Part shown: one piece after another, positions 24,717-25,049 of the stretch | How the letters are laid out: each line of letters starts with the position of its first letter | Position numbering within the stretch: position 1 is the stretch's first letter | IMG/VR virus record: IMGVR_UViG_2541047816_000005 | Span: 1-47,623 of that record | Length of the DNA: 47,623 nucleotides | Strand: one strand, 5' to 3' | From: a virus | Lineage: Duplodnaviria; Heunggongvirae; Uroviricota; Caudoviricetes | Position numbers and translations under genes: made by a program | The notes under the pieces: generated by a model | What the model was told of the DNA's origin: nothing | The model's input: the letters and a program-made list of their open reading frames with translations, nothing else | Databases searched by the model: none

Positions 24717-25049
24717 TCAGGGTGCAGAAGGACTAAAGATAAACGTTTTCTTCACGCCTTTACACGGCCTGTCCTTCTCAAATCGCCATTTTGCCATCGC
24801 CTTTACAACCTGCTCATCAAACAAATGGTGCGGCTCTGAACGGATAAACTCAATTCGGGTGACAGTACCATCAGCACCAATATCAAACTTCACATCAACC
24901 CGTCCCTTTATATAATTTGCCGCTGCATAGGCCGGATATTGTGGTAATGCCTTAACCAACTGTCGGGGCATATCTGTTTTATGTTGCGTACAGCCCATAA
25001 CCAGAGAAGACAACAAAATAATTAACGGAAGATTTCTTTTCATTTTCAT
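24717..25049 (-). CDS. outer-membrane lipoprotein with TonB C-terminal-like domain
   Basis: lipobox LVMGC with Thr at +2; PQYPAYAAANYIKGRVDVKFDIGADGTVTRIEFIRSEPHHLFDEQVVKAMAKWRFE aligns with the TonB C-terminal domain; start set at ATG 25049 (track start 25058 is GTG). Confidence 0.7.
   Translation of the reverse strand: MKMKRNLPLIILLSSLVMGCTQHKTDMPRQLVKALPQYPAYAAANYIKGRVDVKFDIGADGTVTRIEFIRSEPHHLFDEQVVKAMAKWRFEKDRPCKGVKKTFIFSPSAP

Follow-up and report, generated by a model that had tools for sequence, protein, structure and literature searches.

A predicted lipoprotein with a TonB C-terminal domain, encoded among the late genes of a cryptic lambda-like Escherichia coli prophage

Gene content and setting of the locus

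The sequence analysed in this study, referred to below as the window, is the full 47,623-nucleotide stretch of the IMG/VR virus record IMGVR_UViG_2541047816_000005. It contains a cryptic, truncated lambda-like prophage of Escherichia coli, and in the late region of this prophage lies a small gene (24717..25043, minus strand) that encodes a predicted lipoprotein of 108 residues carrying the C-terminal, or head, domain of TonB; this gene and its product are referred to here as the TonB-head gene and the TonB-head protein. The prophage adjoins the btsSR and yeh genes, and is considered to be cryptic because it is cut off beside btsS, inside its tape measure gene (~12800..13680). The window has an intact open reading frame (ORF) for the large terminase subunit (553 aa); the prophage of E. 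coli CE10, which matches in other respects, has a frameshift in this ORF.

The genes on the late (minus) strand occur in the order lysozyme (26186..26719, placed by this late-strand gene order), Rz and Rz1, the TonB-head gene, an HNH endonuclease (23977..24342), and the small (23124..23687) and large (21466..23127) subunits of terminase. The gene for the i-spanin Rz (25382..25849; PF03245, E 1.7e-49) lies directly 5' of the TonB-head gene on the same strand, and contains the embedded gene for the o-spanin Rz1 (25444..25629, minus strand; PF06085, E 3.5e-21). On the other side, a YlcI/YnfO (DUF3950) gene (24384..24575, plus strand) is convergent with the TonB-head gene, followed by the HNH endonuclease gene that precedes the terminase genes; these two were assigned from Pfam and the RefSeq annotation of CE10, and the terminase genes from the ORF list, Pfam and the CE10 annotation. 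The ORF list, the CE10 annotation and Pfam uphold the position between Rz/Rz1 and the packaging genes that had been given in an earlier note on this DNA. The same note placed the gene in a slot equivalent to that of bor in phage lambda, which is appropriate as far as the neighbourhood is concerned, but the gene is not a substitute for bor, since both genes coexist in phage 21, with bor on the opposite strand and the TonB-head gene on the late-gene strand.

The ORF ends with a stop codon at 24717-24719 and has three in-frame start codons, GTG 25058, ATG 25049 and ATG 25043, of which the second would yield a protein of 110 residues and the third a protein of 108 residues. The coding sequence 24717..25043 is the likelier one, because RefSeq annotates a 'TonB family protein' with these coordinates in the identical stretch of E. 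coli CE10, because the homologue in the curated phage 21 record starts at the equivalent methionine (MKRNLPL...), and because a GGGAA sequence is present 7-11 nt 5' of ATG 25043. The 108-residue product reads MKRNLPLIILLSSLVMGCTQHKTDMPRQLV...FIFSPSAP, and the peptide PQYPAYAAANYIKGRVDVKFDI...KAMAKWRFE quoted in the earlier note was found in this ORF, on the minus strand, a detail that had gone unmentioned. The GC content of the gene region is 41-44%, compared to 55-59% in both flanks. Residue 94 of the mature domain is a cysteine (RPCKG) that is replaced by arginine in 37 of the 67 translated, otherwise near-identical IMG/VR copies, and it is therefore unlikely to matter.

A TonB head domain behind a lipoprotein signal

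The TonB-head protein matches PF03544 (TonB_C) with 54.8 bits (cut-off 24.6; E 1.3e-14) and TIGR01352 with 54.5 bits (cut-off 27.1; E 1.1e-14), both above the curated cut-offs. Its best matches in a sequence search of the PDB are the C-terminal domains of E. coli and Salmonella TonB (E 4e-16 to 3e-15), and the alignment to the PDB TonB chains runs without gaps from residue 26 or 28 to residue 106, with TonB numbers obtained by adding 127 to the residue number of the protein. Identity to residues 152-235 of E. coli TonB is 37% over 84 gap-free positions. The TonB C-terminal domain itself comprises residues 26-103 (24735..24968, minus strand), equivalent to E. coli TonB 153-230, as delimited by the alignment, the residue map, the AlphaFold2 model and Foldseek. 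Its last strand, residues 94-103 (24735..24764, minus strand), corresponds in the model and the residue map to strand beta3 of TonB. The protein ends at the equivalent of TonB residue 235, only five residues after this beta3-like strand and, unlike E. coli TonB itself, without the last four TonB residues.

The AlphaFold2 model, built from an alignment of 30 relatives, has a mean pLDDT of 86.5, with values above 95 over residues 31-100, and comprises helices at residues 38-42 and 76-83 and strands at residues 47-55, 61-70 and 94-103. A Foldseek search of the PDB returned only TonB C-terminal domains as significant matches, the best of which include 1u07, the BtuB-bound chain 2gsk_B (TM 0.91, rmsd 1.1 Å) and the FhuA-bound chain 2grx_C (TM 0.92, rmsd 1.1 Å); for these three the probability is 1.00, with rmsd values of 1.1-1.3 Å and TM values of 0.88-0.92. 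No significant match for the model was found among the viral structures of BFVD. The protein thus has the same fold as the C-terminal domain of E. coli TonB (residues ~153-239; PDB 1U07, 1XX3, 2GSK, 2GRX), and the profile matches, the PDB matches and the fold agree with the TonB C-terminal domain that the earlier note had read from the sequence.

Several individual residues of TonB are kept, i.e. Y163 (Y36 of the TonB-head protein), P164 (P37), F180 (F53), G186 (G59), F202 (F75), W213 (W86) and F230 (F103), while Y215 is replaced by F88. Mutagenesis in the Postle laboratory has reportedly shown these TonB residues to be of functional importance, and most of the kept positions are invariant across the family. 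The features shared with E. coli TonB include the YP motif, the conserved aromatic residues, G186 and the beta3 strand. Substitutions relative to TonB include Q160 to Leu, R166 to Tyr and R158 to Lys. The TonB variant Q160L is functional and suppresses TonB-box mutants of FhuA and colicin M (Braun review, PMC11658791).

The similarity to TonB is confined to this head domain. The NCBIfam TonB equivalog models (PRK10819) give only 49-74 bits against cut-offs of 265-448, with only model positions ~152-240 covered. The N-terminal inner-membrane anchor for coupling to ExbB-ExbD is absent, and the N-terminus consists instead of a 17-residue signal peptide and a lipobox. The proline-rich spacer is likewise absent, and only seven residues (TQHKTDM) separate Cys18 from the start of the domain. 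As judged from its sequence, the TonB-head protein is a clear member of the TonB_C family and not a TonB energy transducer; without membrane anchor and proline-rich spacer it would therefore not be energisable by ExbB-ExbD.

The lipoprotein signal (24990..25043, minus strand) was read from the sequence and comprises the signal peptide of codons 1-17 followed by the lipobox cysteine Cys18 (TGT, 24992..24990). The lipobox is L-V-M-G|C18 with Thr at position +2, K2 and R3 are found near the N-terminus, and the stretch MKRNLPLIILLSSLVMG|C agrees with a rule of the PROSITE PS51257 type, i.e. the pattern [LIVMFWSTAG]2-[LIVMFYSTAGCQ]-[AGS]-C, preceded by an uncharged stretch, with K or R near the N-terminus and the Cys at position 15-35. 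All elements of this rule were found in 28 of the 30 relatives, and the cysteine is invariant in all 30. The lipid anchor claimed in the earlier note therefore holds at the sequence level. In E. coli, lipoproteins without Asp at position +2 are sorted to the outer membrane. The +2 residue in the relatives is T, S, A or V, and in none of them Asp. By the +2 rule the TonB-head protein is most likely localised at the outer membrane, and the predicted mature protein consists of the lipid, the 7-residue linker and a TonB head of ~83 residues.

Distribution, conservation and genomic context of the family

The TonB-head gene is present in 1616 of 5426 complete E. coli genomes (~30%). Two alleles can be distinguished: the window type (at least 95% nucleotide identity) occurs in 414 E. 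coli genomes, and a second allele, of the phage 21 type, in ~1200; the two are 74% identical in nucleotide and 72% in protein sequence. Carriers among isolated or induced phages are Lys8385Vzw, four Stx1a-converting phages, JLK-2012, phage 21, ev017, Perceval, three PhiR phages and, at 40% identity, a Klebsiella phage. The gene is absent from many related phages. Between the window allele and the phage 21 allele dN/dS is 0.12, with a dS of about 1.46 (near saturation), indicating that the protein is under purifying selection.

Exhaustive and profile searches delineate a family of proteins of 104-133 residues in Enterobacterales, found in at least nine genera, i.e. Escherichia, Salmonella, Klebsiella, Raoultella, Pantoea, Erwinia, Serratia, Sodalis and Rahnella. 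Invariant in an alignment of 30 members are the lipobox Cys, P34, P37, G47, V49, D54, G59, S69, P71, W86 and P93. The IMG/VR scan yielded near-identical copies only and is thus uninformative on diversity.

Copies in phages and prophages (of E. coli, a Klebsiella phage, and prophages of Sodalis and Serratia) are located after the holin, lysozyme and (spanin) genes and before terminase, always on the late strand. This position is kept despite differing terminases, which are of the HNH plus HK97 type, the lambda gpA type and the Terminase_2 type. The neighbourhoods of distant relatives were typed with Pfam. Five relatives in Klebsiella and Raoultella lie at a non-phage chromosomal locus, between lacZ-lacI and a DUF1440 gene, and four Pantoea relatives lie among genes for LysR, epimerase, hydrolase and MFS proteins, with no phage genes nearby. 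Since relatives occur at such non-phage loci, the family is not purely viral. A tblastn comparison of the phage proteins of the window with the loci of distant family members gave only two matches, both to lysozyme. A DUF1440 gene was also observed in Klebsiella phage ST13-OXA48phi12.4, 3 kb upstream of its homologue.

The iron/manganese importer sitABCD is present in every phage record with the phage-21-type allele, i.e. phage 21 (at 8968..11001 of its record), ev017, Perceval, PhiR47_2, PhiR57_1 and PhiR63_2. A general link with sitABCD was considered and dropped, as the co-occurrence is confined to the phage 21 lineage and thus does not represent independent cases: the TonB-head gene is missing from ~18 other lambda-like phages with sit, and sit is missing from the carriers of the window-type allele.

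Upstream region and expression

No minus-strand promoter or terminator was detected between Rz and the TonB-head gene in a scan for consensus promoters and terminators, and folding of the 3' flank of the gene revealed no terminator (z = 0). With no terminator between Rz and the TonB-head gene, the late transcript should therefore read through into it. Expression in a lysogen has been reported for the homologue in prophage Perceval of E. coli LF82, i.e. LF82_160 ('TonB fragment'), a listed moron whose transcription in an overnight LB culture was 8-fold above the prophage median (PMC9928086). The gene was also called a moron in the earlier note and it appears to behave as one, in view of its low GC content and the lysogen transcription of the Perceval allele (72% identity); the window allele itself offers a candidate promoter only.

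This candidate is an extended -10 element, TGTTAGAAT (TG-n-TAGAAT; 25076..25084, minus strand), read from the sequence, which is not accompanied by a good -35 element and was missed by the consensus promoter scan. The phage 21 allele keeps a similar TGTCAGAAT, and the expression of the Perceval homologue in the lysogen suggests, by analogy, a promoter role for TGTTAGAAT. A perfect 8-1-8 palindrome, AGAATAAG-A-CTTATTCT (25064..25080), lies 21-37 nt 5' of the start codon and is a candidate operator. It is the sole close inverted repeat in the 840 bp of 24560..25400, overlaps both TGTTAGAAT and a degenerate Fur-box-like 19-mer, and is kept in all IMG/VR copies of the window allele that were checked. 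The 19-mer (25060..25078; 13/19 matches) is found at offset -29, the same offset as the Fur boxes of relatives.

For each gene, the preceding 150 bp were scored for putative Fur boxes by counting matches to GATAATGATAATCATTATC. Sixteen of the 24 family loci, in phages as well as on chromosomes, have a match of at least 14/19, mostly ~30 bp before the ATG, and the maximum of 17/19 is reached in Serratia grimesii, a Pantoea genome and a Sodalis prophage. Among the other ORFs of the same loci, which served as controls, only 6 of 197 (~3%) have such a match, and five of these six are divergent neighbours sharing the same intergenic region. The 24 loci are phylogenetically non-independent, but represent at least six distinct lineages in phage and chromosomal contexts. 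The tonB gene itself is iron-regulated through Fur, and the K-12 tonB promoter scores 12/19 by the same crude count. Taken together, the upstream sequences make Fur control of the family likely. Fur control is not claimed for the window allele, because its 13/19 site is indistinguishable from 13 other sites in the window.

A possible role in TonB-dependent entry

We propose, with moderate confidence, that the TonB-head protein is a non-energised, outer-membrane-tethered mimic of TonB that binds TonB boxes and dampens TonB-dependent entry; the localisation, the binding and the phenotype are all inferred. A lipoprotein at the outer membrane would sit beside the TonB-dependent transporters, where the free edge of strand beta3 could pair with the TonB boxes of ligand-loaded transporters or of incoming TonB-dependent colicins. 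Such binding would be non-productive and would compete with that of the real TonB. The traffic dampened in this way would be that of TonB-dependent phages (T1, phi80), group B colicins and microcins, at a cost in siderophore and vitamin B12 uptake. In the lysogen the protein would be expressed from a promoter of its own, and late transcripts reading through the gene would probably add to its synthesis. Given Fur control, induction of the relatives would coincide exactly with derepression of the transporters.

Competition for the TonB boxes of FhuA, BtuB and FepA, as suggested in the earlier note, is plausible in view of the fold, the residue conservation and the precedent of dominant-negative periplasmic TonB fragments. 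TonB boxes bind to the TonB head by adding a parallel strand to beta3, and group B colicins also carry TonB boxes (PMC11658791). According to a preprint, export of the TonB fragments 33-239, 103-239 and 122-239 to the periplasm inhibits the TonB system, and 55Fe-ferrichrome transport is abolished (bioRxiv 10.1101/2020.01.05.895219). The TonB-head protein resembles these engineered fragments in that it would place in the periplasm a TonB head that lacks coupling to the motor, but the fragments are soluble, longer and overexpressed, whereas the natural protein is shorter, predicted to be lipid-tethered to the outer membrane, and encoded behind a phage or chromosomal promoter. In contrast to E. 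coli TonB, it would be lipid-anchored to the opposite membrane and without ExbBD coupling.

The closest functional precedents in phages are Llp of T5 and Cor of phi80, N15 and HK022, which are small lipoproteins of the inner leaflet of the outer membrane that bind FhuA from the periplasm (PMC11436027; bioRxiv 10.64898/2026.03.26.714494). Both reach the periplasmic face of FhuA at a surface that overlaps the TonB site (bioRxiv 10.64898/2026.03.26.714494). Neither is related to the TonB-head protein in sequence or fold, and Llp recognises FhuA alone, with an allosteric effect on the surface loops of this receptor, whereas a TonB mimic would read the shared TonB box and could thus affect many transporters as well as colicins.

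Several observations weigh against a blocking role. First, the position of TonB R166, a contact with the FhuA plug, is occupied by Tyr in nearly all family members. Secondly, the tether between lipid and domain is only seven residues long, which may limit docking. Thirdly, the 13/19 Fur-like site is unexceptional in the window, where 14 such sites occur in 47.6 kb and none scores higher, and in the phage 21 allele the site is no longer present (10/19). The inhibition by TonB fragments may moreover reflect a block of the ExbD-TonB interaction, which has been shown, and not an effect on transporters (bioRxiv 10.1101/2020.01.05.895219); the inhibitory fragments are soluble, longer and overexpressed, and a short-tethered outer-membrane protein would hardly be able to reach ExbD-TonB. 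The strong Fur boxes of chromosomal relatives suggest a cellular role in iron starvation, where a pure inhibitor of uptake would be costly, and they fit a helping or tuning role at least as well as a blocking one. A search of PADLOC-DB 2.0 returned no family at E<=0.01 for either the TonB-head protein or the TolA-type lipoprotein described below, and a literature search yielded no binding, localisation or phenotype data for any family member.

Of the alternative explanations, the one that survives best, albeit as an unlikely one, is that the family consists of cellular envelope proteins, induced by iron starvation, that help or tune the Ton system by holding TonB boxes, modulating signalling or retaining the TonB head, and that phages carry the gene as a fitness gene like sitABCD. 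The tonB gene is itself iron-regulated, and the strong Fur boxes at most relatives, including the non-phage loci of Klebsiella/Raoultella and Pantoea, together with the sitABCD genes in every phage record with the phage-21-type allele, are consistent with such a role. However, no mechanism is known by which a TonB head detached from the ExbBD motor could energise transport, the Fur site of the E. coli alleles is weak or absent, and the association with sit comes down to a single phage lineage, with ~18 sit-carrying phages lacking the TonB-head gene. Moreover, the unanchored TonB fragments tested in the preprint are all inhibitory (bioRxiv 10.1101/2020.01.05.895219).

It is less probable still that the protein is an outer-membrane lipoprotein with a target other than the TonB box (peptidoglycan, Lpp/OmpA or a host factor), acting as an envelope-stabilising or serum-resistance moron like Bor. 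The lambda Bor/Iss proteins are likewise outer-membrane lipoproteins encoded by a moron after the lambdoid lysis genes and expressed in lysogens, so that the shared neighbourhood, the predicted outer-membrane location and the expression of a homologue in a lysogen all fit this explanation, as does the in vivo crosslinking of TonB to Lpp described in the same preprint (bioRxiv 10.1101/2020.01.05.895219). Yet the TonB-head protein has no similarity to Bor/Iss, its only Pfam matches at E<=1 are TonB_C and TonB_2, and its gene lies on the strand opposite to bor and coexists with it in phage 21 and Perceval. The conserved residues, furthermore, are those of TonB itself, and the Fur boxes point to iron biology.

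A role as lysis accessory or spanin at the end of the lytic cycle is implied by the full-length match of the protein to phrog_1267, labelled 'Rz-like spanin' (E 5.7e-43), and by the invariable position of the gene directly behind the lysis cassette, on the late strand, in phages of E. coli, Klebsiella, Sodalis and Serratia, but it is highly improbable. The identity as an Rz-like spanin was rejected, since intact Rz and Rz1 are already present in the window, and the protein has a globular TonB fold ending in ...FIFSPSAP, without a hydrophobic tail or C-terminal transmembrane segment. In addition, chromosomal relatives have no lysis genes nearby and a homologue is expressed in a lysogen. The label of phrog_1267 is most likely an annotation error carried over from position and lipobox. 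Finally, a functionless, decaying fragment of a captured tonB, as suggested by the labels 'partial tonB-like' and 'TonB fragment' and by several frameshifted or truncated copies, hardly deserves credence, being already contradicted by the low dN/dS at near-saturated dS between the E. coli alleles, by conservation across nine or more named genera of Enterobacterales, ranging from Escherichia to Rahnella, by a newly acquired and conserved lipoprotein signal in place of the TonB N-terminus, and by transcription of a homologue in a lysogen.

Members of the family are known so far under labels such as 'TonB family protein', 'TonB C-terminal domain protein' (phage 21), 'partial tonB-like membrane protein' and 'TonB fragment' (Perceval). 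A full-text literature search found no study on the function, lipoprotein nature or regulation of the family, and neither a paper on the type XI secretion system (T11SS) that mentions TonB C-terminal domains nor one on the evolution of force transducers describes lipid-anchored TonB heads. What is new here is the recognition of a lipoprotein family with an invariant Cys, under purifying selection, with its prevalence, its phage and non-phage loci and the Fur boxes of relatives, i.e. a domain already known, in an architecture and a setting not described before, and potentially a broad exclusion mechanism.

If the TonB-head protein does act as a natural dominant-negative form of TonB, about one third of E. 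coli genomes would carry a gene that changes how sensitive the cell is to TonB-dependent phages, colicins, microcins and siderophore-antibiotic conjugates and that also affects iron uptake; among its carriers are O157:H7 and Stx1a phages. This would be of relevance to phage therapy, to iron-limited competition in the gut and to 'Trojan horse' antibiotics. It would also constitute superinfection exclusion by mimicry of a shared host partner, unlike the recognition of a single receptor by Llp and Cor, and provide a natural reagent for the debate on whether free TonB heads inhibit via the transporters or via ExbD. With its Fur boxes and chromosomal relatives, the family also seems to have a part in normal iron-starvation physiology.

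A TolA-type lipoprotein in the same prophage

The same prophage encodes a second predicted lipoprotein, of 142 residues, with a TolA C-terminal domain (31202..31630, minus strand; PF06519, E 3.8e-23; NF007065 positions 297-386). Its lipobox is LTTG|C20, again with Thr at position +2. Like the TonB-head protein, it combines a lipobox with the head domain of an envelope energy transducer, in this case the other one, and is encoded by a common moron, present in 897 of 5426 complete E. coli genomes (~17%). Unlike the TonB-head gene, it belongs to another domain family, is located between Q and the lysis genes, and has no Fur-like site of at least 13/19 upstream. The RefSeq name 'tolA: cell envelope integrity protein TolA' cannot be correct for this gene and is a mislabel. 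In the phage collection the TolA-type gene was found in mEp460_ev081 only, also between Q and the lysis genes, and with a single phage record a general co-occurrence of TonB- and TolA-type genes was dropped.

By analogy, the TolA-type lipoprotein could serve as a decoy for group A colicins and filamentous phages, and the parallel design of the two proteins supports, albeit does not prove, the decoy idea. A tentative and rather doubtful extension is that enterobacterial prophages, and some chromosomes, deploy decoys in which the heads of the two proton-motive-force transducers TonB and TolA, severed from their motors, are attached to an outer-membrane lipid anchor and intercept the TonB boxes and TolA-binding epitopes on which colicins, microcins and phages depend for crossing the envelope, so that both import routes would be closed, with the TonB version switched on by Fur upon derepression of the transporters. 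Should this hold, ~30% (TonB type) and ~17% (TolA type) of E. coli genomes would carry an unstudied broad-spectrum mechanism of exclusion or tolerance.

Other features of the window

A promoter scan of the region around the TonB-head gene returned four sites, compared to 2.6 expected by chance, including a sigma-70-like site (TTCACA-16-TATAAT, 11/12; 24889..24916, plus strand) that lies inside the TonB-head gene in antisense orientation. Rfam gave no match in or beside the TonB-head gene. Elsewhere in the window, it identified an STnc100 sRNA (30826..31032, minus strand; 158 bits) flanked by the genes for a SASA/NanS-type esterase and the TolA-type lipoprotein, as well as two tRNA genes (31912..31985 and 31998..32070, minus strand), annotated as Arg and Ile in CE10. 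An OmpC/NmpC-like porin gene (32840..33982, plus strand), named ompC in the RefSeq annotation of CE10, is oriented opposite to the phage genes and lies between the Q antiterminator and the tRNA genes; the NmpC porin of prophage Perceval is, like its TonB-head homologue, expressed in the lysogen (PMC9928086).

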